In this document: positions 1-64,000 of the stretch, piece by piece | Numbering within the stretch: position 1 is the stretch's first letter | How the letters are laid out: each line of letters starts with the position of its first letter | From: a virus | Virus record (IMG/VR): IMGVR_UViG_3300045988_116230 | Location: 84,126 to 148,125 of that record | Strand: one strand, 5' to 3' | Length of the DNA: 64,000 bases | Made by a program: the position numbers and the translations under genes | Notes under the pieces: model-generated | Databases searched by the model: none | What the model was told of the DNA's origin: nothing | What the model saw: only the letters and a program-made list of their open reading frames with translations

Positions 1-1
1 T

Positions 2-109
2 CAAGGCAATCAGGATGTGATGAATATGGGTGATTATTCTACACCTTATTTGAAGAGCTTGGAGGATGATGAAGAAGATAAATATAAAAAGAGAAGGAGA
101 AATAGCTGA
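2..109 (+). CDS. 3' end of an upstream gene (partial; ...KYKKRRRNS*); stop overlaps the next ATG (ATGA)
   Basis: open frame from window edge; TGA at 107-109 overlapping ATG 109. Confidence 0.3.
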   Translation, partial: QGNQDVMNMGDYSTPYLKSLEDDEEDKYKKRRRNS

Positions 110-3099: not shown

Positions 3100-3102
3100 T
3101 AT

Positions 3103-9513: not shown

Positions 9514-9693
9514 GTATGAGAAGGAGATTTTTTAATGCTGCGGATAATTTCGTGGGAGGATGTTATAATAAGTTATCCAATGAAGATATAAAAAAGGCTT
9601 GGAGGAAAAAGACCTTATGTATGTCAGTTTAATAAAATTCATATACATATAGGACCTGTATTAAAAGATCATGATTCTGATGTTAGTTACATA

Positions 9694-10047
9694 ATGTTTA
9701 ATAGTAATTGGAATTATGGTGGTTATGAATCTATGGTTTATAATCATAGCAATAATGGTATTTTTATATTAGGTGAAAACAAAATTGGTAACATAGAAGA
9801 TCATATACAAGATCTAACATATTGGTACGAATATGATCCAAGCATTAATGAAAATTATTGTTATTTTTATTATGAGGCTAATAACAGCGGAAATGCTATC
9901 AAGTTGAATGGTGAGTTTGGTGATACCAGTACTGTTTTCAACATTCCCAGCTTGGAAGTCACCACTCTTCGTGATGGCAGTTTGAGTTTTCCGGAGATTT
10001 ATATAGAAGGAATTTGGGATCCGTCATTGTATAAGTCGGTTTTATAA
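9694..10047 (+). CDS. hypothetical protein (start may be an internal Met)
   Basis: ORF track; fills gap between large genes. Confidence 0.35.
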   Translation: MFNSNWNYGGYESMVYNHSNNGIFILGENKIGNIEDHIQDLTYWYEYDPSINENYCYFYYEANNSGNAIKLNGEFGDTSTVFNIPSLEVTTLRDGSLSFPEIYIEGIWDPSLYKSVL

Positions 10048-10074
10048 TTAACTTTGCAAAAAAGTTAATTATAA
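10042..10074 (+). promoter_or_regulatory. perfect 12-bp inverted repeat (TTATAATTAACT-9nt-AGTTAATTATAA) spanning the stop codon of the upstream gene and ending in the ATG of the 752-aa gene
   Basis: read directly: ttataattaact ttgcaaaaa agttaattataATG. Confidence 0.5.
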
Positions 10075-12332: not shown

Positions 12333-12379
12333 TTTTTGTATACATATAATATAGTTTTTTCATAATTACGATTTGGAAA

Positions 12380-12407
12380 GTGAGGCTTGTGAAAGTCTCA
12401 CTTTTCT
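12380..12407 (+). terminator. rho-independent terminator after the 752-aa gene
   Basis: GTGAGGC-ttgtgaaa-GTCTCAC followed by TTTTCT. Confidence 0.5.
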
Positions 12408-12557
12408 CATATATGTACGTATATCAATAACATACAAGAAAAGTTAGGTTTTCATTGTTTATGGATTATTTTTGTTAAGTTTGCGATATTAGTTTCAGGA
12501 AGGGATTATGGAAATAAGGGAAAAGTAAGAACCGAACGTAACTAATAACAGTAGGAA

Positions 12558-12755
12558 ATGAGAATCAGTACCATCAAACGTAACAACAGCATTCATCTTA
12601 TGTATAAAAACATTATGAATGATTTAGGTCAATTAAGAACTGTAGTTTCAAAATCCTATATTTATAATCTGATACAAAATCAAACCGGATTAAGTATCAG
12701 AACTATATCCCATGTCTTGAATCACACAAAAGAACAGGATACAGATTCTTTGTGA
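12558..12755 (+). CDS. small protein with LacI-type helix-turn-helix at its C-terminus (NLIQNQTGLSIRTISHVLNHT resembles DIAKLAGVSxxTVSRVLN)
   Basis: motif similarity by eye; lies in a 630-nt otherwise non-coding region; true start probably an internal Met (~12600-12615). Confidence 0.3.
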   Translation: MRISTIKRNNSIHLMYKNIMNDLGQLRTVVSKSYIYNLIQNQTGLSIRTISHVLNHTKEQDTDSL

Positions 12756-12838
12756 AAAGCATACATTTTCATACATTTGTGTGTTCTTTAGTTTTTAGAT
12801 TTAAGTTTTTCATGGTATTAGTTTAGATTAGTGTAGAT

Positions 12839-12873
12839 CAGGGTTCGCAGTGATGCGGGCCCTGGTTTGATTT
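12839..12873 (+). terminator. strong hairpin (10-bp stem incl. two G-U pairs, loop AGTGAT) plus U-rich tail
   Basis: CAGGGTTCGC agtgat GCGGGCCCTG gtttgattt. Confidence 0.5.
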
Positions 12874-13041
12874 AAAAAGTATTAAAATATTTGCTATTTA
12901 AAATCCTGTTCCTATCTTTGCTCCAGAAACAATGAACAACGAGATCCCACCTCTGGTTGTTTGATGTTGAAAGATATTTTTGGCTCATTAGGGTTTGTCA
13001 TAGTGGGATCTGACATTCTCTTTTGGGCCTATTTTTTTATC

Positions 13042-13926
13042 ATGGATAAAGTTTCTGTTTTTGAAAGTTCGGATTTTGGAGAGCTTAGAATTATTGTAGA
13101 TCCAAAAGGAGATGTTTGGTTTGTGGCGTCAGATGTGGCTAAATCTCTTGGATATATAAATGCTAAAGATGCGGTAAAAAGACATGTAGATGATGATGAT
13201 TCTATGCTTTTGCAAGTATCTGATAATCAATGGGGCGTAAAACGATCTATATTGAAAACCAGATATATAGATAGTATAAGAATAATTAATGAATCTGGTT
13301 TATATTCTCTTATATTATCTTCAAAATTAGAGTCTGCTAAGAGATTTAAGAAATGGATAACATCTGAGGTTCTTCCTTCTATTCGTAAAACAGGAGAATA
13401 TAAAACAAGTTCAGGCGGCAAGGGAATTTTGGTTCCTGACTTTTCTAATCCAGCAGATGCAGCAAGAGCATGGGCCGATCAGTATGAAGCTGCTCAGAGA
13501 GCTATAGCTGAAAAATCTCAGGCAGAGGCAGAGAAGCAACAAGCCTTGAAAACAATAGAAGATCAGCGTCCAGACGTTGAGTTTGCAGAATCGTTCAAGA
13601 AAGTTGATAATGATAGAATGTGGCTGATTCGTGATATTGCCAAAAAGTTAGAACAGAATGGTGTTATCATCGCTGAAAAGAATCTTCGCTCATTTCTTGA
13701 AGAAGCTAAGTTTATGTTTAGAAACGGTCTTGGCAAATGGGAGTTGTACAGTAATGTAGTGGCTAAAGGATACGGTGTGTATAGATCATATTTTGTAGAC
13801 AAGTATTCTGGAGAAAGGGTTAATCAACAAACTATCTACATGACTGGTGCCGGATATGAAGTGACCCTCAATGGCATAAAAGGAAAACTTAAAAATGTAT
13901 TTTTAAAATATGGTAAATTTTCTTGA
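13042..13926 (+). CDS. Bro-N domain antirepressor-like protein (N-terminal Bro-N: ELRIIVDPKGDVWFVASDVAKSLGY; C-terminal KilA-C-like region)
   Basis: classic Bro-N/AntA signature; start moved to internal ATG at 13042 (track ORF starts 12961 with TTG and a hydrophobic junk N-terminus). Confidence 0.7.
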   Translation: MDKVSVFESSDFGELRIIVDPKGDVWFVASDVAKSLGYINAKDAVKRHVDDDDSMLLQVSDNQWGVKRSILKTRYIDSIRIINESGLYSLILSSKLESAKRFKKWITSEVLPSIRKTGEYKTSSGGKGILVPDFSNPADAARAWADQYEAAQRAIAEKSQAEAEKQQALKTIEDQRPDVEFAESFKKVDNDRMWLIRDIAKKLEQNGVIIAEKNLRSFLEEAKFMFRNGLGKWELYSNVVAKGYGVYRSYFVDKYSGERVNQQTIYMTGAGYEVTLNGIKGKLKNVFLKYGKFS

Positions 13927-13937
13927 GTTTATTTATA

Positions 13938-13976
13938 GGTAGTGTTTTAAAAGAATAAAAAACACTACCTTTTTTT
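13938..13976 (+). terminator. rho-independent terminator (11-bp stem GGTAGTGTTTT/AAAACACTACC + T7)
   Basis: read directly downstream of Bro-N gene. Confidence 0.65.
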
Positions 13977-14073
13977 GTTTCTGTCTTTTCTGAAAATACT
14001 TCTCTTCTATAGGAAATAAACACACCCATATTCCACCCTGCAATCATGATCTTTGTTACGTGCTTCATGCACG

Positions 14074-14094
14074 TATGTTTAACAATTAAATACT
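14074..14094 (+). repeat. copy 1 of exact 21-mer TATGTTTAACAATTAAATACT, 8 nt upstream of ATG 14103; contains TAtgTTTA (Bacteroidota -7-box-like) and a TTAA-N3-TTAA dyad
   Basis: identical 21-mer at 60450-60470. Confidence 0.6.
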
Positions 14095-14102
14095 ATAAAA
14101 TT

Positions 14103-15111
14103 ATGGGTGGTGATAAAATCGTCCTTTTAGATGGAGCCGGGGCTAACGGTGGTGGTGCAGCCACTAATGGTCTTCTTTCAATGATTCCCGGCATGTTTGC
14201 TAATTTGATAGGTGGTAATAAAATGGATCCGAATCTGGTGGCGGCTTTGATGAACGGTCGTAACAACCAGGACGGTTTCGGTGGGGCTAACGGTTGGTGG
14301 CTCTGGATAATTGTTTTGTTCTGGCTGTGGGGGTGGACGCGGCTTCGGTAACGGTTTTGGAAATGGCGGTGATTGTTGTGCCAATGGTTTGCCGGCTCAG
14401 TTGAATAACGATTACGGTCGTGAACTTTTGATGCAGGCAATTCAAGGTAATCGTAGCGCCATAGATCAGATTGCTTCTGCTTTGAACTGTTCTACTACTC
14501 AACTTCAAAACGCTATCTGCAACGTACAGGGTGCCATTGATAAAGTAGCTGGTCAGGTAGGTATGACTTCTCAGGCTGTTATCAACGCAGTTCAACAACA
14601 AGGTTGTGAAATAGGAAATCAAATCAGCTCTTGCTGCTGCAATCTGAGTTCGTTGATCAATCAAAGCACTTGCCAGACTCAGGGAATGATTACTCAGCAA
14701 GGTTTTGATAACCAGCTTCGCACGTTGGAACAAACCAATGTCTTGCAGAACGGTCTCAACCAAGGTCTGGCTAACAATCGTGAGCAAGCTACAAGCCAAT
14801 TCAATATCTTGTCTGCGAAACTTGACGCCCAAACCGTTATGATCAATGACAAATTCTGTCAGTTGGAAATGAGGGAGATGCAGAACACTATTGCTCAACT
14901 TCGTGAAGAAAAAGCGGCTTTGACAGCTTCGGCATTATCTCAGCAACAAACCCAGAATATCGTTGGTCAATTACGCCCGACGGCCGTCCCGGCCTACCCC
15001 TCTTGTTCTCCTTACCAGGCTTATACTTGGGGACAGGTATTCGGAGGAGGTTGCTGCAATAACGGATGTGGATGTAACAACGGATGTTGCAATAACAACG
15101 CTGCTGTCTGA
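14103..15111 (+). CDS. Gly/Cys-rich low-complexity protein: Gly-rich N-terminus, Trp-rich hydrophobic segment (WWLWIIVLFWLWGW), GFGNGFGNGGDCC block, Q/N-rich helical core with CC/CCC motifs, C-terminal GGGCCNNGCGCNNGCCNNN tail. Two track ORFs (14046..14351 frame 0, 14311..15111 frame +1) would fuse if the G5 run at 14329-14333 were G4
   Basis: both frames remain Gly-rich across the junction; frameshift or sequencing error at tgGGGGGtgg. Confidence 0.45.
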
Positions 15112-15134
15112 TTTTATTAAGAGAGGAGGCTAAT

Positions 15135-15548
15135 ATGGCTTGTGTTTCTAAAATAGGATCGTTGTATGAGATGGTTACGAAGAATGTTATTGTCAGTACG
15201 ACAAATACAGTCTTCGGTATTAACCCACGGGCTTGGATCGCCCTTCCGTGTGAGGGTCTTATCCTTCTTAAGATAAGGCAAGTAGTCCCCACAGCCGGAA
15301 GTGCTCTACCGGTACAGATTGCGGTCCCGGCAAACAGCACAGTTTCAACAGTAGGATCCGACACCTGTTGCCCGGTTACGGGAGTGAATGTCGTGAACCC
15401 TATTAACGTAGCTGTCACGGGTGCTGCTATGGTAAATGGCACAGAACGCCTTCTGTACTTCAATAAAGTTCGTGGCGTGTTAAGATTAATGGATTGTTGT
15501 GTTCCGACAACAACAGCCCAGGCGTCTGAAGTTAAAGCAGGTAAATGA
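15135..15548 (+). CDS. hypothetical protein with CC doublets (DTCCPVTG, MDCCVPT), beta-rich; strong GAGGAGG SD
   Basis: ORF track; SD 7 nt upstream. Confidence 0.5.
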   Translation: MACVSKIGSLYEMVTKNVIVSTTNTVFGINPRAWIALPCEGLILLKIRQVVPTAGSALPVQIAVPANSTVSTVGSDTCCPVTGVNVVNPINVAVTGAAMVNGTERLLYFNKVRGVLRLMDCCVPTTTAQASEVKAGK

Positions 15549-15598
15549 TTTCAGTAGGGTGATGAATATCATCACCCTATTTTCACCTAACTAATATT

Positions 15599-16093
15599 TT
15601 GATCATGTTTTCAGATTTGAAGAAAGGGTTTCAGGTACATACCCTTGATACTAATACAGTACCTAAATACGAATTGGGAAAGGTAGTAGCCGTATCCGAA
15701 CCCAGGTGTCTTCCTCCTCAGCCAGGTCAGTATCAGGCGATGCAGACCCGCGTGGTGGATCTGACGGTAGAGCTCACTGGCGAAACCAAGACCTATACGG
15801 TCCCGGAATCCCAGAATGTGGCTAAGGCTATGGGCATAACATTATCTACCAGCATAGATCCGATTATGAACGAACTGAATGCTATAAAAAACACCAGTCA
15901 AGACATAATAAACAGCGTAGATGCCCATCGTGCCAAGATAGAGGCTTGTGAATCTATATTAGAAGACATCAATCCGGCATTCAAACAAACGAGAGAGCAG
16001 GATCGTAAAATAGCTGGTATAGAAAATAAGGTGAATGACCTTACTGATTCATTCGAAGATTTAAAGAAGTTAATTGTAGAACGTTTGAAATAA
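15599..16093 (+). CDS. hypothetical coiled-coil protein
   Basis: ORF track. Confidence 0.45.
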   Translation: MIMFSDLKKGFQVHTLDTNTVPKYELGKVVAVSEPRCLPPQPGQYQAMQTRVVDLTVELTGETKTYTVPESQNVAKAMGITLSTSIDPIMNELNAIKNTSQDIINSVDAHRAKIEACESILEDINPAFKQTREQDRKIAGIENKVNDLTDSFEDLKKLIVERLK

Positions 16094-16100
16094 GTATAAT

Positions 16101-16469
16101 ATGATAGTATATGATTTAAATTCAGGACACAGAGAATATCTTGGATATGACGAGATAGAAGACAGACGAGGTGGAGGCAGAGGCAGAAGCCGGCGTTCTG
16201 ATGGGACGTACATGGGGTATGGTGGTGGTATTTACGACCATTACGGTATGCATGAGAAGATGAAAGAAATGGAAGAGCGCGAAAACGAGCTGGAAGAAAG
16301 GGAAAGAAGGCTCGAAGAGCGCGAACGTCGTCATGAAATGGAGGACCGGGAATACCGGAGGATGGGTTACGAATCCTACCCGACCGATTACTATGGAGAC
16401 GACAGATACTACGGTGACGGACCTCAGATGCGTAGAGGTCGCGGACGTGGCAGAGGTCGTTCTTATTGA
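16101..16469 (+). CDS. Arg/Gly/Glu low-complexity protein (RGG/RGRGRGRGR termini, ERERR repeats)
   Basis: ORF track; composition read from translation. Confidence 0.45.
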   Translation: MIVYDLNSGHREYLGYDEIEDRRGGGRGRSRRSDGTYMGYGGGIYDHYGMHEKMKEMEERENELEERERRLEERERRHEMEDREYRRMGYESYPTDYYGDDRYYGDGPQMRRGRGRGRGRSY

Positions 16470-16562
16470 GGAGCAGACGCAGAGGGTCCAGCTTATCAGA
16501 AATATGTAGATACTTACGGCTACCATTTTTCTAATGCTCTCGCTGATGAGGCGGTAAAGAAG

Positions 16563-16856
16563 ATGGTCAACGTCGATGGATCCAAGAGGATCTGGAAGCA
16601 GCCGGAAATAAAAGATATTTTTGAAAAGTGCGGAGCGAAGAAGCCGGATAAAGCGACATGGGGCAATGTCCAATATGTCTTTGCAATGTACTATTCGGAT
16701 GGTTTTCCGAAGGTCTTCAAATGTGAGAACGAGTTGGTGAAAGCTACGTTAATGTATTTGGATGATCCGGATGCTCCCGAAGGAGTAGCCTTTATAAGAT
16801 GGCTTGCCGTGCAAGATTACCTCGGCGAAAAAATAAACTGGAAGGATCTGACCTGA
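16563..16856 (+). CDS. hypothetical protein
   Basis: ORF track. Confidence 0.4.
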   Translation: MVNVDGSKRIWKQPEIKDIFEKCGAKKPDKATWGNVQYVFAMYYSDGFPKVFKCENELVKATLMYLDDPDAPEGVAFIRWLAVQDYLGEKINWKDLT

Positions 16857-17021
16857 GATCCAGACCCAGGTCCTTCCGGTGGTGCGGGAGCCATAGTAAA
16901 AAATATGATTCCCGCATTCCCGTTTTTCCCGTTTGGAAAAAAAAGGAATAAAAATATTATACCGGTCGGCGGGCAATAGAATACCCGTGGCCGGTTTGTT
17001 TCACATAACTTTTTTTTTGAC

Positions 17022-17198
17022 ATGAATATAGCACACGAATCTAAATCGAATAAAACCCCATTGTATTTAATAGGAGAGTTGATTGGCGTACCGAATACGG
17101 TTATGGACTCAGCATTGCATGAACTGAAAGATAGAATAGACAAAGACCCTAAATATAAAGATGTTAAAAATTGGCTCGAATCTTTACCCAAGATCTGA
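17022..17198 (+). CDS. small hypothetical protein (58 aa), not in track (<60 aa)
   Basis: clean ORF ATG..TGA followed by terminator. Confidence 0.3.
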   Translation: MNIAHESKSNKTPLYLIGELIGVPNTVMDSALHELKDRIDKDPKYKDVKNWLESLPKI

Positions 17199-17220
17199 AC
17201 CTATTTTTCCCAATACCAGG

Positions 17221-17250
17221 CCCGATGCGATTTTAGCGTATCGGGTTTTT
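17221..17250 (+). terminator. rho-independent terminator CCCGATGCG-attttag-CGTATCGGG-TTTTT
   Basis: read directly. Confidence 0.55.
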
Positions 17251-17325
17251 ATTTTAATTCATATTGTTTTATTTTAAATCTAATTAATTTATGAATGTCG
17301 TACTTTTGTTGAAAAAGTATTTTTT

Positions 17326-17553
17326 ATGGAAAATAAGGAAGATTACGTTGGTTACGAAGATCAAGAACTGTGTAACCGGTATTACAAAGAGGCTGAAGCC
17401 ATGAGGCAAAAGCAGGACTGGTCTCGGCTTAGGGCTGTCCCTGCTCCGGCCAAGGGAACGCCATCGCCCGGCTGGGGTCAGCTTGGACGTGGAAGTGATG
17501 TCCGTGTTAAGTATGTGAGTATCAATTCAGGATTGGGGGGAGATAGATTATGA
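17326..17553 (+). CDS. hypothetical protein
   Basis: ORF track. Confidence 0.4.
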   Translation: MENKEDYVGYEDQELCNRYYKEAEAMRQKQDWSRLRAVPAPAKGTPSPGWGQLGRGSDVRVKYVSINSGLGGDRL

Positions 17554-17768
17554 CCGTAGAAGAATTAGCTAACAAAAGATACGGTGGCGAATTTGTTTTC
17601 ATGTTTGGTCATCTTGAAGGTAGAACAAGATTCGTTTTTGAATGCTTTGATCCTAAACCTGATTACGAAGGTAAAAGCACTTATATGGTTTCCTATTTTG
17701 AGAAGGGACTTTGCAGAAGAGATGTGGTAGATGTGCCGTGTTATATGAATGTTTTGCCAAAATCATGA
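17550..17768 (+). CDS. hypothetical protein
   Basis: ORF track; ATGA-type overlap with previous. Confidence 0.4.
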   Translation: MTVEELANKRYGGEFVFMFGHLEGRTRFVFECFDPKPDYEGKSTYMVSYFEKGLCRRDVVDVPCYMNVLPKS

Positions 17769-17968
17769 AAACACTACTTTTAAATGTACCTGTATTTTCC
17801 GGTAAGATTATTTCTCCTATATGGATTAAGGCCGTAAGAGATTTTCAATCCAAATCCAAGTCAGAAAGAGACCTGTATTGTTCGATCTGTGGATGTGCAG
17901 GAGGGTGTAACTTGTGTAATGATATAAGTAAGTATAGGATTTCAGAACAATTAAAATATTACAAATAA
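17765..17968 (+). CDS. hypothetical Cys-rich small protein (CSICGCAGGCNLC)
   Basis: ORF track 17711..17968 trimmed to internal Met. Confidence 0.35.
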   Translation: MKTLLLNVPVFSGKIISPIWIKAVRDFQSKSKSERDLYCSICGCAGGCNLCNDISKYRISEQLKYYK

Positions 17969-18246
17969 TGGAATTAAAAGATTTTAAAGATGTAATTAGA
18001 ATGATGACAAAAGAAGAGTTCGAATCAACAATTGAAGAAGATATTAAATTCGTTGAAGGATTCAAGTATTTCTTAAGACATGATGATGCTACAAGGATAG
18101 TGGAACACATCAAGTCCGTGTTAGAAGCATCAGTGGACTACTATTATCCTAATCATCCTAAACCTGAAGCAGAACCAGGAGACATGGGAGAAGTTTCTGA
18201 TGGATACCACACTTTCAATATCCGAAATAACATTAAAACAATATAA
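17968..18246 (+). CDS. hypothetical protein
   Basis: ORF track. Confidence 0.4.
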   Translation: MELKDFKDVIRMMTKEEFESTIEEDIKFVEGFKYFLRHDDATRIVEHIKSVLEASVDYYYPNHPKPEAEPGDMGEVSDGYHTFNIRNNIKTI

Positions 18247-18515
18247 TTTCATTATAAGGTTTTAATGTACCAGAAATGGTCCGGATATTAGCCTAAGCCT
18301 TGAAACGAAGGCTACGTTATTTGAGAATATATAGTTACCTACGGATGTTTGCCCAAGTCTGTAGCTCTAAGGCAAGCGATTAAACAGGAGTAGTGTATTT
18401 GCGAAACAGTGTTGCTTGCATCAAAACCTCTTATAACATTGGCGATGGGTACTAACAGGATGAAATATTCCTGACTTATGTTGAATAAACATTGAAAACG
18501 TTTGTAGATATGGTG
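18247..18515 (+). ncRNA. candidate omega-RNA (IscB guide RNA) region: ~260 nt non-coding, hairpin-rich, immediately 5' of and abutting the IscB start
   Basis: position relative to iscB as in known OMEGA systems; hairpins such as GCCTT-gaaacg-AAGGC; no comparison possible. Confidence 0.3.
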
Positions 18516-19730
18516 TACGTACAAGACATAAATGGTAAACCTATGATGCCTACAACAAGGCATCATAGGTAAGACGACTGCTTAAAGAAAACAAGGCAGT
18601 TGTTGTGAACCTATGTCCGTTTACCATCAAATTAATGTACGTAACATCTGATTACAAACAAGAAATTGTGTTAGGCGTTGATGCTGGTACTAAACATGTT
18701 GGTTTATCAGCAACGACGAAAAGCAAAGAGCTTTACAGCAGTGAAGTTATTCTTAGAAATGATATCGTAGATCTTTTGTCTACCAGAAGAGAGCTACGGA
18801 AAGCAAGACGGAACAGGTTAAGATATAGAAAACCTCGTTTTGATAACAGAGTAAAAAGCAAGCGTCTAGGATGGATAGCACCTTCGGTGAAATACAAAGT
18901 AGACGCCCATATTCGTGTTGTTGAAAATGTTTGCTCTATATTACCAATATCTCGTATTGTTATTGAAGTAGCTCAATTCGATACTCAAAAGATTAAGAAT
19001 CCTGAGATATCAGGTAAAGAATACCAGGAAGGTGATCAACTTGAGTTTTGGAACACAAGGGAGTATGTTTTAGCAAGAGATGGACATAAATGCCAGTATT
19101 GTAAAGGCAAGTCAAAAGATTCTATACTGAATGTTCATCATATTGAGTCTCGAAAAACCGGAGGGGATTCCCCTTCTAATCTTATAACTTTATGTGAAAC
19201 ATGTCACAAAGAATACCATAAAGGTAATATAGATTTAAAGATCAGAAGAGGCAAGTCGCTTCGCGACGCAACCGTAATGGGAATTATGAAATGGAGGTTG
19301 TATGAAGAGTTAAAATCCAGATACGACAGAGTTTTTATGACGTTTGGTTACATTACGAAACATAATCGGATTAAATATGGGATTGAAAAATCCCATACAT
19401 CCGACGCGTTTGTCATTTCTAAGAATATTAATGCGAAACGAATCGAACGTCAATATTTAAAACGTTTAATTCGTAGACATAATAGACAAATACATAAAAT
19501 GAAAATTTTAAAGGGGGGGGAAGAAGAAAAACAATCAAGCTCCTTTTGAGGTTTTCGGTTTTAGGTTGTTTGATAAAGTGTTGTATAACAATAAAATATT
19601 CTTTGTTTATGGAAGGAGAAAATCAGGGAGTTTCAATATCAGGGATTTCAACGGAGAAAATTCAAAAGATGTTTCACGCAAAAAGTTTAAACTCATTAGA
19701 GGGAAGAGGCATCCGATTATATTAAAGTAA
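18510..19730 (+). pseudogene. iscB: IscB-like RNA-guided nuclease (PLMP N-term, RuvC-I, RRxRR bridge helix, RuvC-II, HNH, RuvC-III, C-terminal domain) interrupted by two frameshifts. Segments: 18510-18569 (frame 0), 18569-19520 (frame -1, the 314-aa track ORF), 19521-19730 (after a G8 run 19513-19520)
   Basis: motifs read from translation; details in the IscB finding. Confidence 0.65.
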
Positions 19731-19767
19731 ATGAACGGATTTAATAAATTTAATAGAAAAACGTATC

Positions 19768-58813: not shown

Positions 58814-59264
58814 GCAAAAATTTAAAAACGACCTTCATTACATTTCCAAAGTTCTCCACCTTAACCCACTCGTGAGCTACTGCTCTAAGTACGGATGTTT
58901 CGTATGTCGGAATATCGTCTTCTTCAACCACCTTACAAGAAGCCAGAACTCCTTCAGTCGGCTTTAGTCCGAGGTCATGCAGCTCGCAGAGACCGCCCGG
59001 CTGGCGGAATGCGCACCACCCGTCTTTTTCTGTTGGCTGGATCATCGCTATTGGTTTTTCTTTCACTGCAAGATACCCGACCATCCACATTGTTTCTTTT
59101 AACCTGTCAGCGTATCCGGCATCTATGATAGCCTCTATGTCTTTTGGCGTACCAATACAAGGAACCTTACACATATTCTTGCATTTATCACATGTACAAG
59201 GTTGCTCCCATCTGTTATGATCTATGCCAACCAACTTCTTTATCCGTTCTACTTCCTCTTTCAT
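58791..59264 (-). CDS. hypothetical Cys-rich protein
   Basis: ORF track. Confidence 0.45.
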   Translation of the reverse strand: MKEEVERIKKLVGIDHNRWEQPCTCDKCKNMCKVPCIGTPKDIEAIIDAGYADRLKETMWMVGYLAVKEKPIAMIQPTEKDGWCAFRQPGGLCELHDLGLKPTEGVLASCKVVEEDDIPTYETSVLRAVAHEWVKVENFGNVMKVVFKFLHENERRK

Positions 59265-59545
59265 ACTTCTTTTGTTAGTTCATCATAATAAGCTTTCAGT
59301 TCCGGTGAAGCGTATTCCATAAATGCTTCAAACAAGTAGGGTACCTCTATTATCATATTCACATTACAACCTTCTGCCTGTGAAAGCAATTCAGGATCAT
59401 TACTGTACAGACACGCAACATGAGCACCTATATTAAATACATGCAAATCTATCCTTACGTATTCTATACATGAAGACAATGCATTAAACAAATTCTTTAC
59501 TTCATTCTTGTCAAAAAGTTCTACAAATTCTCTCAACCCCATCAT
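59261..59545 (-). CDS. hypothetical protein
   Basis: ORF track. Confidence 0.4.
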   Translation of the reverse strand: MMGLREFVELFDKNEVKNLFNALSSCIEYVRIDLHVFNIGAHVACLYSNDPELLSQAEGCNVNMIIEVPYLFEAFMEYASPELKAYYDELTKEV

Positions 59546-59925
59546 TTTACTACCCTTTCTATGTGTTTAATTAATACTACTGCCATCCCCTTACCTGTTT
59601 TTATCGCACATTCCGATCCTTTTATCCATTCTACACACCCTACATACTTTTCTGTAGAATGAAATCCGGGATTGTATTTTCCAGATGTACTGAACTCTAC
59701 CGTATCCCCTACCTTCAGATCATCAAAAGCAATAGACCATGTGGTCCAAATTCTATCATGTCTCCCAGGCTGAATGGCTCCAATTACGCCCTTCTTACGA
59801 CCGTTTTTTATCGCCCTTAGTATTATCTTTCTATCATCTTCGATAAGGCTGCAAAAGCGCCCGTAAAAGGTCAAATCAACCTGTTTTCCTCCTATTTCTT
59901 CTCTTATTTTTGTTATTCTGTTCAT
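59542..59925 (-). CDS. hypothetical protein (possibly PUA/ASCH-like fold)
   Basis: ORF track; weak impression only. Confidence 0.4.
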   Translation of the reverse strand: MNRITKIREEIGGKQVDLTFYGRFCSLIEDDRKIILRAIKNGRKKGVIGAIQPGRHDRIWTTWSIAFDDLKVGDTVEFSTSGKYNPGFHSTEKYVGCVEWIKGSECAIKTGKGMAVVLIKHIERVVK

Positions 59926-60169
59926 TTTCTGATTTTGTTTTATTTTTTTCTTTGTTTTTTCTATCTTCTATAGAAGATGATAATAACATTATCTTTTCTA
60001 TGTTACTTTTTGACTGTAAAAAAGAATCGCATTTCATTACTACTACCACCTTCTTAAGTTCCCCATTATCGTATAGCGATACACGCATCATGTTTTGCAC
60101 CTCGTCCACTATCAGACCTGGAGTAGTCTTAGCCATTTTGCGTAGCTTATTATACTCCGGTCTTTCCAT
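59876..60169 (-). CDS. hypothetical protein
   Basis: ORF track. Confidence 0.35.
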   Translation of the reverse strand: MERPEYNKLRKMAKTTPGLIVDEVQNMMRVSLYDNGELKKVVVVMKCDSFLQSKSNIEKIMLLSSSIEDRKNKEKNKTKSENEQNNKNKRRNRRKTG

Positions 60170-60434
60170 TTCCTCTGTTTATTACTCTATAGTATTTATC
60201 CTTATCCCCTTCTTTCAACTTCTCCAGATAGAAAATTCCATCATGTAAATGAGACAAACAAAACCTGTATCCGTATTTCCGTACTCTTCTTACATGATCC
60301 CGCAGTCTTATCTCTTCACTTTTGTCTTGTACTTTGATTTTAATACTGTCTCCTTCTTTGATTGTGTATAAAATAGTTTGAATCTCTTCTTTTTTCATCT
60401 TATAAAATATTTTAACGGCAGCACCTATACTCAC
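60150..60434 (-). CDS. hypothetical protein (likely starts at internal Met ~60398)
   Basis: ORF track. Confidence 0.4.
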   Translation of the reverse strand: MSIGAAVKIFYKMKKEEIQTILYTIKEGDSIKIKVQDKSEEIRLRDHVRRVRKYGYRFCLSHLHDGIFYLEKLKEGDKDKYYRVINRGNGKTGV

Positions 60435-60449
60435 GCACCACTACTGCCT

Positions 60450-60470
60450 TATGTTTAACAATTAAATACT
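60450..60470 (+). repeat. copy 2 of exact 21-mer TATGTTTAACAATTAAATACT; on + strand inside the - arm, overlapping the last codons of ORF 60462..61271, 10 nt upstream of a + strand ATG (60481)
   Basis: identical to 14074-14094. Confidence 0.6.
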
Positions 60471-61271
60471 TAACTCTTCAATGGTCAAGCCTTTTTCTTT
60501 TGCCCACTTTAGCATCGCGCATAATTCTGTTTCTGACTTATATTTCGGATCACGCCACGCCCATCCGAATTTATCCAGGACATGATGATATAATTCGTCG
60601 GCCTTTGCCGTGTAAATGTCTTTGAATAAATGCTCCGAACCTTCCGGTATAAGCATCTCTGTTGTTGCAAAATCGGAATACGATAAACATCCGTAAGCAT
60701 ATTCTGTTATTTCACTCCATGCTTCTCCGGCTTTAAATCCAAATTCTTTTACAAAAGCCAAAGTTAGATACATATTTAATAATATTGTTACATCATATCC
60801 GGAATCCGACTTTCTTTCTATTATTTCCTTTTCAAATTCCTTTAAATCTTCAGGCCCTAAAAAGATGTATCCTGATACCGACCGGTAATTAGTCTCCGCA
60901 TACTTCTTGCATTTATCATCATTGACAATCTTACTAATGTTAGATAACATCTTTTGCCTCCATTCATCACAAAACTCTACCTCTACGTTCATCCAATCAG
61001 TACCATAATTATATTCTTTCGGATATCCGACCGATGTTACCTTTATACTATTCACGCCATATCCGTAAAGGCGTTCACTTACCTCATTCGCCCATTCCTG
61101 TACAAAAGGAATAAACTTATTGTAATAAGAATCAAAATCAAAATCCGATTCCTCCTCATATTCTGGCATCTCTTCATAATCCTGTTCAAAGAAATGACGA
61201 GGATCTGCTATTGTTTCGTAGAAACTTACGTTAATGAAACAAAACTCGTTGGTTGTCGTTTTTAATATCAT
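60462..61271 (-). CDS. hypothetical protein
   Basis: ORF track. Confidence 0.45.
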   Translation of the reverse strand: MILKTTTNEFCFINVSFYETIADPRHFFEQDYEEMPEYEEESDFDFDSYYNKFIPFVQEWANEVSERLYGYGVNSIKVTSVGYPKEYNYGTDWMNVEVEFCDEWRQKMLSNISKIVNDDKCKKYAETNYRSVSGYIFLGPEDLKEFEKEIIERKSDSGYDVTILLNMYLTLAFVKEFGFKAGEAWSEITEYAYGCLSYSDFATTEMLIPEGSEHLFKDIYTAKADELYHHVLDKFGWAWRDPKYKSETELCAMLKWAKEKGLTIEELSI

Positions 61272-61522
61272 AACTTTTTGTATTTACGTACATTTTTCTT
61301 GCCATAGAATCTACACATGGCACGAATCTGACTATAAAATACTTTTGTCCTCCTGGCCTCAAAGTATTTAAACATTTCTTCATTCTTTGTTTCCCAAACG
61401 TAATCCGTTTGGGAACTCATGCGATCTTTCTCCTTGCGTGAATAATGGTAATATGATACCACAACACGTTTCATACCATTCTTTACAGGTACGATATTTA
61501 CGTCTATACTATTCTCTGTCAT
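61268..61522 (-). CDS. hypothetical protein
   Basis: ORF track. Confidence 0.4.
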   Translation of the reverse strand: MTENSIDVNIVPVKNGMKRVVVSYYHYSRKEKDRMSSQTDYVWETKNEEMFKYFEARRTKVFYSQIRAMCRFYGKKNVRKYKKL

Positions 61523-61545
61523 ATTATTATTGTTTTATGCATTAT

Positions 61546-61586
61546 ACAAATACAAAGAGCGCATACCTTCACAGGCCGGCGCTCCT
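61546..61586 (-). terminator. rho-independent terminator on - strand after ORF 61642..61875 (GGAGCGC-16nt-GCGCTC + UUUGUAUUU)
   Basis: read on reverse complement. Confidence 0.45.
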
Positions 61587-61641
61587 TTCAATAAAAATGA
61601 AAAAACTAATATTACATAAACATATTGTTTTCTACTCTTTA

Positions 61642-61875
61642 TTACAATACTTTTGTTCCGCAATTATTATATCTTCCGTACTCTTTTTTCGTATCATTCA
61701 AGATTTCAAAAACCATCTTCTTGTGATCTTCGTTTGGTAACCTATCCTTAACAGCCGATATTACGCCCGCTATAGACGTAAAGCCTGAATCTGTTATTGA
61801 ACACAGCAACACGCCTCTGTCGGCTCCGGTGCTTATTGCTGACGCCTTTATAATATCATTCTTATATATTCTCAT
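61642..61875 (-). CDS. hypothetical small protein in a monocistronic unit (tRNA-like element upstream, terminator downstream)
   Basis: ORF track. Confidence 0.4.
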   Translation of the reverse strand: MRIYKNDIIKASAISTGADRGVLLCSITDSGFTSIAGVISAVKDRLPNEDHKKMVFEILNDTKKEYGRYNNCGTKVL

Positions 61876-61896
61876 AACTTTTTTGTTTTATTGTTT

Positions 61897-61957
61897 GTGA
61901 GATGCCCAGAATCGAACCAGGACCGGCACATACGCACCGGCACGCCGCGTCATCCCC
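61897..61957 (-). other. tRNA-like element A (minihelix-like): GGGGATG-29nt-CCTGG-TTCGATT-CTGGG-CATCTCA-C, i.e. acceptor stem + canonical T-arm, 20 nt upstream of the start codon of ORF 61875
   Basis: canonical GGTTCGATTC T-loop and 7-nt acceptor 3' strand; no D-arm or anticodon arm foldable. Confidence 0.4.
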
Positions 61958-62138
61958 TCTATGATGCAGAAATAGGCATGCCTATCCTCACGAACCGACA
62001 TGCCAAAACCCAAAACTTAATTTGATGAATAAAATAGATTAACAAAAATACTATTCTAATTGGTGATTATATACTACTTTACACCACAAATATGTCAAAT
62101 TGTTTTTATATATAAATAATAATTCATACATTTGTGTC

Positions 62139-62453
62139 ATGAGATTAGTCGAACAACATACAATCAAGCCAAGTTCTGTTTATTACAATGAGCTTTATGA
62201 CTTATTGCATAAGTGTAAAAACTTATACAATAAAGGATTGTATGTTGTTAGACAACACTACTTTCAATACAAAGATGATAATACTGTAAAATACAAATAT
62301 CTTAACTACTATTCTCTTGAAAAGAAACTAAGAGCAGAAATGGTGCTTTTAACATCATTAGAAAATCAGAAAAAGAATCCTTTGATGTAACGATGTTACC
62401 AAAAGGTAGAGGGTTTTGGTGGAACCCGGTACGGATTTCCGTATAAATGTGTA
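62139..62453 (+). pseudogene. remnant resembling the N-terminus of a TnpB/OrfB (IS200/IS605 family) protein: 83-aa ORF (IKPSSVYYNELYDLLHKCKNLYN...KYKYLNYYSLEKKLR) with GFP(Y/R)FK-like continuation in other frames, then truncated
   Basis: alignment by memory to the TnpB N-terminus (LYPnaaQxELxxxxxxxRFVYN); only + strand ORF in a gap of the - arm. Confidence 0.3.
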
Positions 62454-62813
62454 CTATTTTACGCTTTTGGTGTAAAGTTGTATATAACCACCTTCTAATT
62501 CTTTTATAATATCTTTCACAATATTCAGCCTCACCTCCTTCGTTTCTGGACTAATACAGCCAAACCATCCATATATCCTCCATTCTTCTTCTGGTTCTGT
62601 AGCCATACTTTTCTTTTCCTCCAATTCCGGGAAATATGTTTTCACCAGTTCATCTAAATATAACCCATAAATGGATTCTATTTTTTTAGGAGTACTGAAA
62701 AACTTAAATACTATATTTCTCAACATGACGCATATATAATCCCCATTCTCTGACCTTTCGATCTCCTCATATACCTTTTTCCAAATGAATAATCGCTCTT
62801 CTTTTGTAAACAT
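62454..62813 (-). CDS. hypothetical protein
   Basis: ORF track. Confidence 0.45.
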   Translation of the reverse strand: MFTKEERLFIWKKVYEEIERSENGDYICVMLRNIVFKFFSTPKKIESIYGLYLDELVKTYFPELEEKKSMATEPEEEWRIYGWFGCISPETKEVRLNIVKDIIKELEGGYIQLYTKSVK

Positions 62814-62827
62814 ATCTTTCTTTATTT

Positions 62828-63169
62828 TTATGGTATTATTTGACTGTATGCAAACTTTTCCATGTACACAACACTATGTTCCCGTCCAAGTATTTTCTTT
62901 GCTGCTTCTTTCTTTATTGCGCAATATCTCCCTGTACGATACGGATTCTTTTGATCTGATCCATCCTCGACTTCGATAATAAAACAACCTCCGTCATCTA
63001 TTATCTTTTTGCAATTGTCACATATTTCTCCCGTGCATATATGATGCGGCGCCTGCCCCTTGATGTTATTCCCTAATAAAGCAATCCCCATCTCTTCGCC
63101 ACATATCATGCAAACTTCTATAGACGGATTCAATCCGTGTTCTGGATATAATGTAATACCATCTTTCAT
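62828..63169 (-). CDS. hypothetical Zn-binding protein (CMICG...HHICTGEICDNC); strong AAGGAGGA SD
   Basis: ORF track; SD read upstream. Confidence 0.45.
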   Translation of the reverse strand: MKDGITLYPEHGLNPSIEVCMICGEEMGIALLGNNIKGQAPHHICTGEICDNCKKIIDDGGCFIIEVEDGSDQKNPYRTGRYCAIKKEAAKKILGREHSVVYMEKFAYSQIIP

Positions 63170-63197
63170 TTTCTTTCCTCCTTTGTTTTTAATGTTG

Positions 63198-63243
63198 TGT
63201 GAGATCGCCGGAATCGAACCAGCCTACCGCACCATGAATCCCA
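63198..63243 (-). other. tRNA-like element B (minihelix-like): TGGGATT-13nt-GCTGG-TTCGATT-CCGGC-GATCTCA-C, ~28 nt upstream of the start codon of ORF 63169
   Basis: same architecture as element A with compensatory C-G to G-C change at T-stem position 49/65. Confidence 0.4.
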
Positions 63244-63322
63244 TAAAGCAAATGCTCCGATCTTCGCAGACGGGAGCACTCTGTCTAAAGCATAAGAAAA
63301 TTAATGAAGAAATTTTTCTCAC

Positions 63323-63403
63323 TTACGCCATAGCATCTAAAATAGCTATCAACACTATTTCTATGACAAACATAATAGAAAATATCTTAAATGCCTTTTT
63401 CAT
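63323..63403 (-). CDS. 26-aa hydrophobic peptide MKKAFKIFSIMFVIEIVLIAILDAMA with strong AAGGAGGAGA SD (type-I-toxin-like / small membrane peptide)
   Basis: ATG 8-10 nt downstream of perfect SD; single TM helix. Confidence 0.3.
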   Translation of the reverse strand: MKKAFKIFSIMFVIEIVLIAILDAMA

Positions 63404-63510
63404 ATCGCTATCTCCTCCTTTTTATTTTTTTTAGTTCCACAATAAACTGTTCCGGCTCTGCTCCGACCTACGTTCCACCTACAACCGCAGGCCTTAGCCC
63501 AAGGCGCCGC

Positions 63511-63780
63511 CTACTCCCCCTCTATGGCAGCCTGTTCGTACCTACAACACCAGTCTCCATCTATACAACTATCACTACGCGATAACAAACATTTATCCTT
63601 ATAACAATCATAAAAAATACACCTATCACAACTGTAATCTTTAACTTCTATACAGCTAACTACCTTAGCATATACTATACCATCACTACCTTCTATTCCT
63701 TTCACCCCAAAAATAGAACCTTCTCCCTCCTTACTCAAATCTAAGTCAGGCGCAAAGTCATATACGTTCATACCATCCAT
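63511..63780 (-). CDS. hypothetical Cys-rich protein (first gene of the - arm)
   Basis: ORF track. Confidence 0.45.
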   Translation of the reverse strand: MDGMNVYDFAPDLDLSKEGEGSIFGVKGIEGSDGIVYAKVVSCIEVKDYSCDRCIFYDCYKDKCLLSRSDSCIDGDWCCRYEQAAIEGE

Positions 63781-63882
63781 ATTTTAATTGTTAAACATCC
63801 CGCTTAAAAAAAAAATACTCACATAATGCAGTCCTCAACCCTTAATCTGTTGGAAGGAACCTATATAATGCTGTTTTAAACC

Positions 63883-64000
63883 CTTATCATATTGAATTTT
63901 GTGGAAATGATCTACAGAACACTGTTTTAAAACGCTTATCTATTGAATTTTGTTGGTAGGGAGTTGAATTTTGTTGGTAGGGAGTTGAATTTTGTTGGTA
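63883..64000. repeat. array of degenerate ~21-bp direct repeats with core TTGAATTTTGTGG/TTGAATTTTGTTGGTAGGGAG (at least 3.5 copies, cut by window end), upstream of the - arm: iteron/origin-like or terminal-repeat region
   Basis: read directly; three near-identical tandem units at 63943-64000. Confidence 0.55.

Follow-up and report, generated by a model that had tools for sequence, protein, structure and literature searches.

The acceptor stem and T-arm make up the part of a tRNA that is recognized by RNase P, RNase Z, and the CCA-adding enzyme. In the vertebrate mascRNA systems of MALAT1 and MEN-beta, RNase P cleavage generates the 3′ terminus of the upstream RNA, where a stable structure guards it, and the small RNA is completed by RNase Z and the CCA-adding enzyme. 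The early genes of phages T7 and SP82 contain intergenic RNase III sites, at which a host RNase cuts the polycistronic mRNA to leave hairpin-protected ends. Plant mitochondria possess t-elements, which Hanic-Joyce et al. are said to have described in 1990, and similar t-elements have been described in the Haloferax rRNA operon. The mitochondrial t-elements were found via the T-loop motif GGTTCRANYCC; RNase P has been proposed or shown to cut them to produce the 3′ end of the upstream RNA and RNase Z to produce the 5′ end of the downstream RNA, and the released t-element may gain a non-templated C or CCA (Forner et al. 2007, PMC1920247).

Here we analyze two elements, A and B, that lie between small genes on the minus strand of a 64-kb window (the whole stretch of DNA under study, from a large human-gut phage). 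We propose that both may be t-element-like RNA processing signals at which RNase P and RNase Z would cut polycistronic phage transcripts, a reading to which we give somewhat less than an even chance. A preliminary description of the locus had offered tRNA-mimic leaders for RNase P or RNase Z as its first suggestion, and this is the reading we also favor. As far as our literature searches show, tRNA-like cutting sites in phage mRNA have no phage report: searches for phage minihelices, tRNA-like decoys, and tRNA punctuation returned nothing relevant.

Anatomy of elements A and B

Element A spans 61 nt (61897..61957, minus strand), as defined from the sequence and a descriptor scan. Its 5′ acceptor strand GGGGATG (61957-61951) pairs with the 3′ strand CATCTCA (61904-61898) at six of seven positions, pair 1-72 being G/A, and the 3′ strand is followed by a discriminator C (61897). 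The T-arm, CCTGG TTCGATT CTGGG (61921-61905), presents the loop TTCGATT at 61916-61910. Between the 5′ acceptor strand and the T-stem lies a 29-nt spacer (61950-61922) composed of a linker (61950-61942) and a central hairpin, GCCGGUGC GUAU GUGCCGGU (61941-61922), which is predicted to form 8 bp capped by the tetraloop GUAU and lacks a 7-nt anticodon loop. An A-rich trailer, AAACAATAAAACAAAAAAGTT (61876..61896), extends to the ATG of a 77-aa ORF (61875-61642), which therefore begins 21 nt past the element.

Element B, defined in the same manner, is a 45-nt minihelix (63199..63243, minus strand). All seven acceptor pairs form between TGGGATT (63243-63237) and GATCTCA (63206-63200), which flank a 13-nt linker (63236-63224) and the T-arm GCTGG TTCGATT CCGGC (63223-63207) and precede the discriminator C at 63199. 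The linker begins with an invariant CATGGTG and continues with a hypervariable CGGTAG, and across 115 copies in relatives its flanks are likewise invariant. Downstream, the trailer ACAACATTAAAAACAAAGGAGGAAAGAAA (63170..63198) contains the Shine-Dalgarno sequence of a 113-aa ORF (63169-62828), whose ATG at 63169 stands 29 nt past the element. The sequence thus agrees with the T-loop context, the 7-nt 3′ strand, the discriminator C, the two 5′ acceptor strands with their 29- and 13-nt distances to the T-stem, and the 20-30-nt separation from start codons that had been described. The accompanying argument that no D-arm or anticodon arm can form stands to the extent that neither element has a 7-nt anticodon loop, but the spacer of A is not structureless, given its 8-bp hairpin.

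The minihelix of B is the minimum free energy (MFE) fold in four of six haplotypes and lies within 0.5 kcal/mol of it in the others. In the window copy the MFE fold is an alternative closing stem that uses the linker (GUG.GGU with AUC.CAC); we rejected it because substitutions in the linkers of relatives break this stem, whereas TGGGATT is invariant. For A, RNAalifold predicted the acceptor stem and T-arm unaided from 32 haplotypes, and 98.6% of the cells in the alignment pair, versus at most 52% in slid controls; in single A sequences the tRNA-like fold is not always that of minimum energy. The fold energies of the elements are no better than those of shuffles.

The shared block GGTTCGATTCYGGSSATCTCACA occurs twice in the window versus 0.00 expected from shuffles. 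A descriptor that asks for the T-loop, five paired T-stem positions, a 3′ strand of 7 nt, and, 5-75 nt away, a 5′ strand complementary to it finds exactly A and B in 64 kb, where 0.08 sites are expected, and a relaxed version finds no further sites there. Both elements have the T-arm signature G53 T54 T55 C56 R57 A58 plus C61, with a 5-bp stem and a 7-nt loop, directly adjoined by an acceptor stem and then the discriminator. Pairs 2-7/66-71 are retained in nearly all haplotypes, and pair 1-72 is mostly unpaired. B matches the t-element motif GGTTCRANYCC exactly (GGTTCGATTCC), A at 10 of 11 positions (GGTTCGATTCT), and some relatives end in ...CC.

The elements do not belong to a canonical class. 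A cloverleaf would require a D-arm and an anticodon arm with a 7-nt loop, and only 13 nt (B) or 29 nt (A) lie between the halves, which also lack the pseudoknots and tag reading frame of a tmRNA. Consistent with the earlier view that these are not canonical tRNA genes, ARAGORN reported no tRNA or tmRNA at the elements in the window, and ARAGORN and Rfam were likewise negative for canonical or odd tRNAs and for tmRNAs in more than 60 relatives; the Rfam tRNA model RF00005 gave no match at E≤10, so that a full cloverleaf was found by neither search. The YrlA model RF02553 also gave no match to A, B, or C (a third element type) at E≤10, and all three are without the Ro-binding closing stem and the permuted module with its D-arm. 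The sole Rfam match on A is a very weak one to tmRNA (RF00023), whose 6.5 bits fall far short of the gathering score, 47. The RNA structure of the elements is well supported, and we infer their function.

Recurrence in relatives and selection on pairing

A and B recur in more than 119 IMG/VR contigs and in the phage csAssE-Sib, the closest isolate record to a lineage of human-gut phages of ~80-250 kb; GenBank annotation labels element A a hypothetical protein. Genomes of this lineage carry three to four tRNA-like elements of four types (A, B, C, and D), ranging from 45 to 64 nt, and the order C-B-A is constant among relatives. A discriminator C is present in nearly every copy of all four types, with a T in one copy of B. 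Type C copies were collected by their 5′ anchor only, and the 5′ acceptor strands of types C, D, and the second lineage described below were picked for their ability to pair.

That second lineage (L123/L124/L127/L133), which is actinophage-like and unrelated, shows a similar architecture: a hairpin, an element with a 6-bp acceptor stem and a perfect T-arm, a CA-rich trailer, a Shine-Dalgarno sequence, and a start codon. BLAST of this locus against isolate phages matched a methylase gene alone.

The preliminary description noted a C-G to G-C swap in the T-stem and took it as a sign of selection on RNA structure. The swap is real (pair 49-65, C-G in A versus G-C in B) and is joined by a compensatory difference at pair 7-66, G-C in A and U-G in B. 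Within the B family, pair 50-64 appears as C-G, U-G, or U-A and pair 52-62 as G-C or A-U; within A, pair 51-63 runs through the series C-G, U-G, and U-A. Type C has four pairs changed on both sides, values that were reached in 0-2 of 500 shuffles, and its T-loop is nearly invariant at 54-58 and variable at 59-60, as in real tRNAs. A single MAFFT alignment of all types misaligned the 5′ strands and was replaced by per-type and excised-minihelix alignments. Across element types, 8 of 12 minihelix pairs covary, with a covariation score of 0.64 versus 0.29 in shuffles, although the acceptor-stem share of this signal is inflated because the 5′ strands of C, D, and lineage 2 were chosen for pairing. 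A hand count gives roughly 28 pairing-preserving changes versus 5 disruptive ones. In type A alone, changes are one-sided wobble substitutions only, and shuffles match the real alignment. The comparison as a whole supports selection acting on RNA pairing in the elements, with evidence much stronger than a single swap.

Could the elements instead be tRNA genes in decay, functionless relics that have lost their D and anticodon arms and look conserved through the close kinship of the sampled genomes? The relatives are indeed very alike overall, most alignment columns being invariant, and ~9 kb upstream the same strand encodes the phage's own tRNAs (Met, Gln, Arg, and Cys), two of which share the T-loop TTCGATT. 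The wobble-type changes of type A fit such a history, as do haplotypes with damage: the central hairpin is missing in two A haplotypes, and pair 7-66 is a G/A mismatch in 12 of 106 copies. We nevertheless consider decay decidedly unlikely: in four paralogous types and in an unrelated lineage the two helices are kept and one and the same part is missing, and in B and C pairing is re-established by two-sided changes. Around a fixed T-loop core, variation clusters in the linker and at stem sites that tolerate wobble, and the elements keep a constant position with respect to hairpins and start codons.

The sequence between the two elements bears on the same question. It had been suggested that A and B are degenerate tRNA genes flanking a small inserted segment with TnpB affinity. 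The ~440-bp insertion is a terminal-inverted-repeat element whose TnpB affinity we could not confirm, and csAssE-Sib has both elements without it, which speaks against the flanking role.

The repeated blocks might also act at the DNA level, as attachment sites or hot spots of cassette exchange. Similarity among relatives collapses ~12-15 nt past each element, and the gene that comes next is one of two alternatives. In A, per-column diversity shows the first ~15 nt of the trailer conserved together with the element before similarity breaks down; in B, the collapse occurs beyond ...ACATTAAAA. One contig (L128) carries a chimera of a B 5′ half and an A 3′ half, so recombination via the common T-loop does occur. 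Yet a compact genome that tolerates indels only between an element and the next ribosome-binding site would show the same collapse, and a DNA site needs neither compensatory changes in two helices nor a conserved 5′ acceptor strand. The earlier idea of att-like tRNA 3′ fragments fares poorly as well: among 185,579 species genomes no host tRNA has this 3′ half, and the pattern scan hit nothing but one chance coding sequence and a fragment of a phage that had been binned in a Veillonella metagenome-assembled genome. No integrase or recombinase is found among the neighbors or annotated near the elements in csAssE-Sib, and the inserted genes are flanked by short A/T-rich repeats only, with no duplicated piece of an element. 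Recombination sites are, on this evidence, a very unlikely explanation.

Upstream hairpins, downstream genes and promoter candidates

A stable hairpin precedes each element. Upstream of A (61975..62004, minus strand), the MFE fold has 8 bp, a 1x1 internal loop, 4 bp, and the GNRA tetraloop GUGA, and a U-rich spacer, UAUUUCUGCAUCAUAGA (61974-61958), leads from this hairpin to the element; in csAssE-Sib the hairpin is kept, with a C-to-U change that retains a G-U pair. Its counterpart upstream of B (63251..63280, minus strand), on which MFE and centroid folds agree, consists of 8 bp (including G-U), a 1x1 C/C internal loop, 4 bp, and the GNRA tetraloop GCGA. With UUGCUUUA coming next, this hairpin has the look of an intrinsic terminator, and its variable sites in relatives are stem positions with mostly wobble-compatible changes. 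Element D, found in L037, is preceded by a homologous hairpin. These GNRA-capped hairpins, the central hairpin of A, and the set of three to four elements per genome were overlooked in the preliminary description.

All elements are intergenic, sense to the flanking ORFs, and located 20-30 nt before a start codon, whichever alternative gene follows. Genes after A start 20-22 nt downstream of the element (38 nt in 4 of 101 cases), and the two alternative genes after B start at 23 or 29 nt. No terminator is seen between an element and its downstream gene, so the element is not a free-standing gene. For the nine neighboring genes, neither Pfam nor PHROG supplied an annotation.

Two other interpretations of the surrounding sequence were discarded. 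ORFs overlapping the elements (61888-62013 and 63166-63279) are ruled out as coding by frameshifting indels in relatives (a G-run of 3-6 and a 14-nt deletion). The motif GTGAG is seen upstream of A as well as of B, and in the centroid fold computed for a 129-nt stretch around B it pairs with CTCAC, as if to close a longer RNA; we dropped this as coincidence, the motif in A being the GNRA loop of the upstream hairpin.

The succession of a terminator-like hairpin, a conserved block, and a gene is the layout of many early phage regions, and the block could accordingly be read as a promoter for a host or phage RNA polymerase, perhaps of the N4-like hairpin type, with the upstream hairpins as terminators. 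If the U-tract hairpins were efficient terminators, the elements would need a promoter, and the early promoters of crAss-like virion RNA polymerases are unknown (bioRxiv 10.1101/2020.03.07.982082). No promoter was found for the elements. A scan of 59000-64000 detected no sigma-70-like hexamer pair (16-18 nt spacing) overlapping either of them, and T7-like or leaderless promoter candidates, judged by eye, are not common to the element types. The block is present in two copies only in 64 kb; the T-loop is common to A/B, C, and D, but the stretch that would hold a -10 is not; and the acceptor-stem covariation spans 45-64 nt, far past an N4-type hairpin of 5-7 bp. Moreover, the window's four largest ORFs contain no DFDxD motif, and no RNA polymerase is annotated in csAssE-Sib. 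We regard a promoter role as highly improbable.

A putative processing signal and its parallels

In the processing reading that we favor, transcription of the small-gene block would yield a sense-strand polycistronic RNA that contains the elements. Each is predicted to fold into a 6-7-bp acceptor stem stacked on a canonical T-arm, with a 13-nt linker (B) or a linker and tetraloop hairpin (A) in place of the D and anticodon arms. RNase P would cut at the 5′ edge of the element, so that the upstream mRNA would end in the GNRA-capped hairpin as a 3′ protector, and RNase Z would cut after discriminator C73, leaving the downstream mRNA with a short A-rich leader of 20-30 nt. The excised mini-tRNA of 45-64 nt could then receive a CCA tail. 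The anatomy supports this scheme in its T-arm and acceptor helix of 11-12 bp, its discriminator C, and its lack of an encoded CCA. The phage's own tRNAs do not encode CCA either, which makes RNase Z cleavage and CCA addition the route already expected in this host. What we infer is that transcripts run through the elements, that RNase P and RNase Z cut there, and that the mRNAs are altered as described.

A fairly unlikely alternative holds that selection favors the product, with the mini-tRNAs being released as stable small RNAs that act in trans by binding tRNA-recognizing proteins. It is compatible with the processing model and differs solely in what selection favors. Targets might include host tRNA-directed defense nucleases, EF-Tu, TruB, TrmA, the CCA-adding enzyme, or a phage Ro60/Y-RNA system, and A and B might be alanylated via G3:U70, like the tRNA-like domain of tmRNA. 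Positions 54-58 of the T-loop, C56 among them, are strictly conserved, and a GG located 3-5 nt into the linker (CATGG in B, ACGCGG in A, GCAGG in lineage 2) would suit a folded elbow with a contact like that of a D-loop. The genes of csAssE-Sib include one for a Ro60-related protein, adjoined by a weak YrlA-like match (RF02553, 28.5 bits) at a locus distinct from the elements, as well as genes for Pnkp and an accessory Pol-beta-type nucleotidyltransferase, all of which indicate a lineage investing in tRNA and noncoding RNA biology. Strong transcription is also on record for crAss-like phage phi14:2, in which two early intergenic regions are transcribed above most genes (bioRxiv 10.1101/2020.03.07.982082).

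Several observations weigh against a trans role. G3:U70 is found in A and B of the window but is not general, being G-C in type C, A-U in lineage 2, and A3-U70 in some A haplotypes. Lacking an anticodon loop, the elements could not decoy anticodon nucleases. No homolog of the 220-aa csAssE-Sib nucleotidyltransferase is present in the window, for which reason a phage-encoded CCA-adding enzyme was dropped as a candidate, and the Ro60 locus lies ~75 kb away. Trans action also leaves the fixed place before start codons unexplained. A dual cis and trans class of tRNA mimics, in which early transcripts are punctuated by anticodon-less mini-tRNAs that are excised, CCA-tailed, and then active in trans, is in our estimate unlikely; such RNAs could be sponges or decoys for tRNA-directed host defenses or tRNA-binding factors, and A and B could be alanylated via G3:U70.

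Should the proposed processing take place, tRNA mimicry would define mRNA ends in phages as it does in plant mitochondria, archaea, and vertebrate lncRNAs, through a gene-expression signal overlooked by gene finders and tRNA finders alike. This would provide a simple way, open to testing, to study how transcripts are organized in an abundant group of uncultured gut phages, and a cheap structure descriptor makes a survey of anticodon-less acceptor/T-arm elements across all phages feasible.

Among known systems, the RNase III sites of T7 and SP82 differ in their enzyme and in their structure, which is that of long imperfect duplexes and does not mimic a tRNA. Canonical phage tRNAs share the T-arm, the acceptor stem, the lack of an encoded CCA, and the strand and region, but possess a D-arm and an anticodon stem-loop, whereas the elements, at 45-64 nt, are missed by ARAGORN and the Rfam tRNA model. 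YrlA (RF02553) is likewise a phage-encoded tRNA mimic with a canonical T-arm; it differs in being circularly permuted, with the T-arm, a capped acceptor-like hairpin, and a D-arm in that order inside a Ro-binding closing stem; A, B, and C have neither the D-arm nor the closing stem. The tRNA-like domain of tmRNA resembles the elements in combining an acceptor stem and a T-arm with no anticodon arm; G3:U70, present in A and B but not general among the elements, might be a further parallel. The GG soon after the 5′ acceptor strand also resembles the D-loop analog of E. coli tmRNA. The phage elements differ from tmRNA in having neither an mRNA-like frame nor pseudoknots, and a discriminator C, not A. 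Like mascRNA, they form a tRNA-like structure inside a longer transcript, but mascRNA has a full cloverleaf-like shape, belongs to a eukaryotic nuclear lncRNA, and has no coding sequence after it.

The plant t-elements, finally, are organellar, have no sequence homology to the phage elements, and are larger. Their cleavage has been proposed or shown, whereas that of the phage elements, known here from sequence, is predicted. The phage elements are further set apart by their ordered series of three to four, the GNRA-capped hairpin before each, and the distance of 20-30 nt to a start codon. What the two have in common is a non-canonical tRNA-like structure with a GGTTCRANYCC T-arm and an acceptor-like stem and, if the phage elements are transcribed with their flanking genes as predicted, a place in sense orientation beside mRNAs.

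Two tRNA-like elements on the minus strand

Element A (61957-61897, minus strand) comprises a 5′ acceptor strand (GGGGATG), a 29-nt spacer, a T-arm (CCTGG TTCGATT CTGGG), a 3′ acceptor strand (CATCTCA), and a discriminator C. Element B (63243-63199, minus strand) has the same organization, with TGGGATT, a 13-nt spacer, GCTGG TTCGATT CCGGC, GATCTCA, and a discriminator C. The next ORF begins 21 nt past A (ATG at 61875) and 29 nt past B (63169). Both elements are GC islands (50-60% GC) within 25-35% GC surroundings. They share a 23-nt block that occurs twice in the window versus 0.00 times expected. A descriptor combining the T-loop, five paired T-stem positions, a 3′ strand of 7 nt, and, 5-75 nt upstream, a 5′ strand complementary to it matches exactly A and B in the 64 kb (0.08 expected), and a relaxed version adds no sites in this window. 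Sequence, block count, and descriptor scan thus confirm the tRNA-like elements of the preliminary description. Its view of A as an acceptor stem and T-arm only holds in part: both helices are present, but the spacer can fold into an 8-bp hairpin with a tetraloop.

That these are not ordinary tRNA genes is upheld by ARAGORN, which finds 0 tRNAs and 0 tmRNAs in the window, and by Rfam searches. At E ≤ 10 neither element matches the tRNA or YrlA model, and the tmRNA model reaches just 6.5 bits, on A; elements from relatives likewise give no tRNA or tmRNA with ARAGORN and no tRNA or YrlA with Rfam. At gathering thresholds, the sole Rfam match in the window is a HEARO RNA far from the elements (18218-18456, plus strand; 99.3 bits, above the gathering score), the omega-RNA of IscB-type nucleases; a 314-aa ORF (18605-19549, plus strand) lies just downstream.

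The closest deposited genome, phage csAssE-Sib (OR575929.1; 151 kb, human gut, ~91% identity), carries both A and B. GenBank annotates a hypothetical protein there (WOZ57404.1; L001, a locus handle, 2541-2699) spanning the upstream hairpin and element A. This coding reading is excluded because the G-run varies from 3 to 6 G and a 14-nt deletion occurs in relatives. The window ORFs across hairpin and element (61888-62013 and 63166-63279, minus strand) are probably spurious, given G-run differences of 1-3 nt and the 14-nt deletion.

A ~440-bp insertion (62056-62494) is missing from csAssE-Sib. Its 28-bp imperfect terminal inverted repeats (62062-62089 and 62465-62492), together with an AATTAG on either side, make it resemble a miniature transposable element, and it alters the C-terminus of a 119-aa ORF (62454-62813). 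The 96-aa ORF within it (62100-62390, plus strand), previously termed TnpB-like, finds no backing in Pfam, PHROG, or tblastn. The idea that A and B are degenerate tRNAs flanking an inserted segment is not supported, since csAssE-Sib has both elements without the insertion. The region’s best sigma-70-like match (TTGACA-16-TAGTAT, 10/12; 62098-62071, minus strand) also lies inside the insertion, directed towards A and the subsequent genes. Further upstream, a 65% GC intergenic island (63440-63540, minus strand) is kept in csAssE-Sib and folds no better than shuffles (z -0.73). Between this island and the hairpin of B lies an ORF for a strongly hydrophobic 26-aa peptide, MKKAFKIFSIMFVIEIVLIAILDAMA (63324-63402, minus strand).

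Element types and their placement in related phages

An exact-pattern scan of IMG/VR recovered at least 119 loci on contigs of 7-253 kb, most with A and B together, 0.5-2.2 kb apart. Applying the descriptor to these loci uncovered type C, ~1.8 kb upstream of B and just past the window end, where it would fall beyond position 64000 (L002, a relative, 7816-7880, plus strand; csAssE-Sib ~460-530, minus strand). Type C combines an acceptor stem of 6 bp with a bipartite central arm (GCAT...ATGC around a covarying 4-bp hairpin), a T-arm, and a discriminator C; 23 nt further on comes either of two small alternative genes. In the loci examined, the order on one strand is always C-B-A. True tRNA genes for Met, Gln, Arg, and Cys, likewise without an encoded CCA, are found on this strand ~9 kb upstream. 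Type D (GGGACGA ... AGCGG TTCGATT CCGCT CCGTCCC A) occurs in one long locus, a 172-kb relative (L037 10975-11040, plus strand), ~9 kb downstream of A; the window holds no counterpart. A descriptor scan of csAssE-Sib (1-63000 and 101300-151256) returned only C, B, A, and true tRNAs; the last ~20 kb of the intervening 63-101 kb stretch are homologous to window 1-19765, where the descriptor finds no additional element.

All elements lie between genes, in sense orientation. Upstream of both A and B comes a hairpin of 12-13 bp, interrupted by a 1x1 internal loop and capped by a GNRA tetraloop, and then a U-rich spacer; type D has a hairpin homologous to that of A plus a U-run, and type C has a covarying 8-bp hairpin. 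Downstream, ~12-15 nt of an A/CA-rich trailer are conserved before similarity among relatives collapses. The following gene is one of two alternatives, almost always 20-30 nt away; neighbouring proteins have no function recognisable by Pfam or PHROG. At one locus (L128, minus strand, around reverse-complement position 817), the 5′ half of B is joined to the 3′ half of A with a mismatched T-stem, and therefore B and A appear to have recombined through the shared T-loop with loss of the intervening genes. A 3.9-kb contig with C and B (NZ_DXLG01000138.1), a fragment of this phage lineage, is binned in a Veillonella sp. MAG, which could be an artefact of binning or hint weakly at the host.

A comparable architecture is found in four related contigs of higher GC content, which carry WhiB and look actinophage-like (L123, L124, L127, and L133). 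In these (in L133 at 5128-5193, plus strand), a hairpin, a tRNA-like element, a CA-rich trailer, and an SD precede a DNA methyltransferase gene directly downstream. ARAGORN calls no tRNA here, and the MFE fold comes close to a cloverleaf: a D-like hairpin of 3 bp is present, and an 8-nt loop takes the place of the anticodon loop. Given the collection size, the pattern match by itself could be chance; the perfect T-stem, 6-bp acceptor stem, and MFE fold lie outside the pattern’s requirements.

Selection on pairing

The proposed selection on pairing is borne out by two-sided changes in B and C and by covariation across types, within a sample of relatives whose shallow divergence limits the statistics. 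For type C (26 haplotypes), RNAalifold unprompted yields the acceptor stem, central arm, T-arm, and upstream hairpin; 99.5% of cells are paired and four pairs change on both sides, values reached by 0-2 of 500 shuffles. Its T-loop, located via the 5′ anchor only, is nearly invariant at 54-58 and varies at 59-60, like real tRNAs. Among 115 copies of type B, pair 50-64 forms a C-G, U-G, U-A series and pair 52-62 occurs as G-C and as A-U, with a single A/C intermediate; in the linker CGGTAG five of six positions vary, and the 5′ strand and T-loop core show no variation. In type A (106 copies), every stem change is wobble-compatible and 98.6% of cells are paired versus at most 52% in slid controls; A alone is merely consistent with structure because two-sided changes are absent and shuffles score equally well. 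Between types, covariation is seen at 8 of the 12 minihelix pairs (score 0.64 versus 0.29 in shuffles), with the caveat that the 5′ strands of C and the actinophage-like lineage were chosen for complementarity. These comparisons give good support to a folded nucleic acid that has tRNA-like acceptor and T helices. Against a promoter speak the low copy number, covariation extending over 45-64 nt, and the finding that no pair of sigma-70-type hexamers overlaps either element; no early-promoter motif of crAss-like phages is known for comparison.

Candidate functions

We regard the structure as solid, and it is widespread among gut phages; its function we only infer. RNase P, RNase Z, and CCA-adding enzyme recognise the acceptor/T-arm helix. 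We tentatively favour A and B as tRNA-like processing signals, a reading that falls somewhat short of probable, because they combine this helix with no encoded CCA, a hairpin just upstream that would protect the upstream RNA, and a short leader that would be left downstream. A trans-acting role of a released mini-tRNA is compatible with processing and rather unlikely. Relic tRNA genes, an unlikely alternative, fit poorly, as four types retain the same two helices and placement. The earlier suggestion of att-site-like tRNA 3′ fragments is contradicted: no matching tRNA occurs in 185,579 species genomes, and a recombinase is absent among the neighbouring genes.

csAssE-Sib encodes several tRNA- or ncRNA-related genes. 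A polynucleotide kinase/3′-phosphatase and an NrnA-like phosphodiesterase are encoded at 2615-4409, in the stretch that separates the tRNA cluster from element C. An accessory gene at 137063-137725 codes for a 220-aa nucleotidyltransferase of Pol-beta type, which is annotated as a polyA polymerase/CCA-adding enzyme and for which the window has no homologue. A Ro60-related gene adjoins tRNA-Tyr, tRNA-Lys, and a weak YrlA-like match (72601-74725; L140, a locus handle, 9601-11725); gene and match indicate that the lineage also has a Y-RNA-type tRNA mimic, outside the window. At 28.5 bits (E 0.003), the match stays under its gathering score of 69.

Literature searches turned up no description of elements like these in phages. 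The principle itself is known elsewhere. Plant-mitochondrial t-elements, found via the same T-loop motif, coincide with mRNA ends (PMC1920247); the processing logic proposed for the phage elements would be the same.
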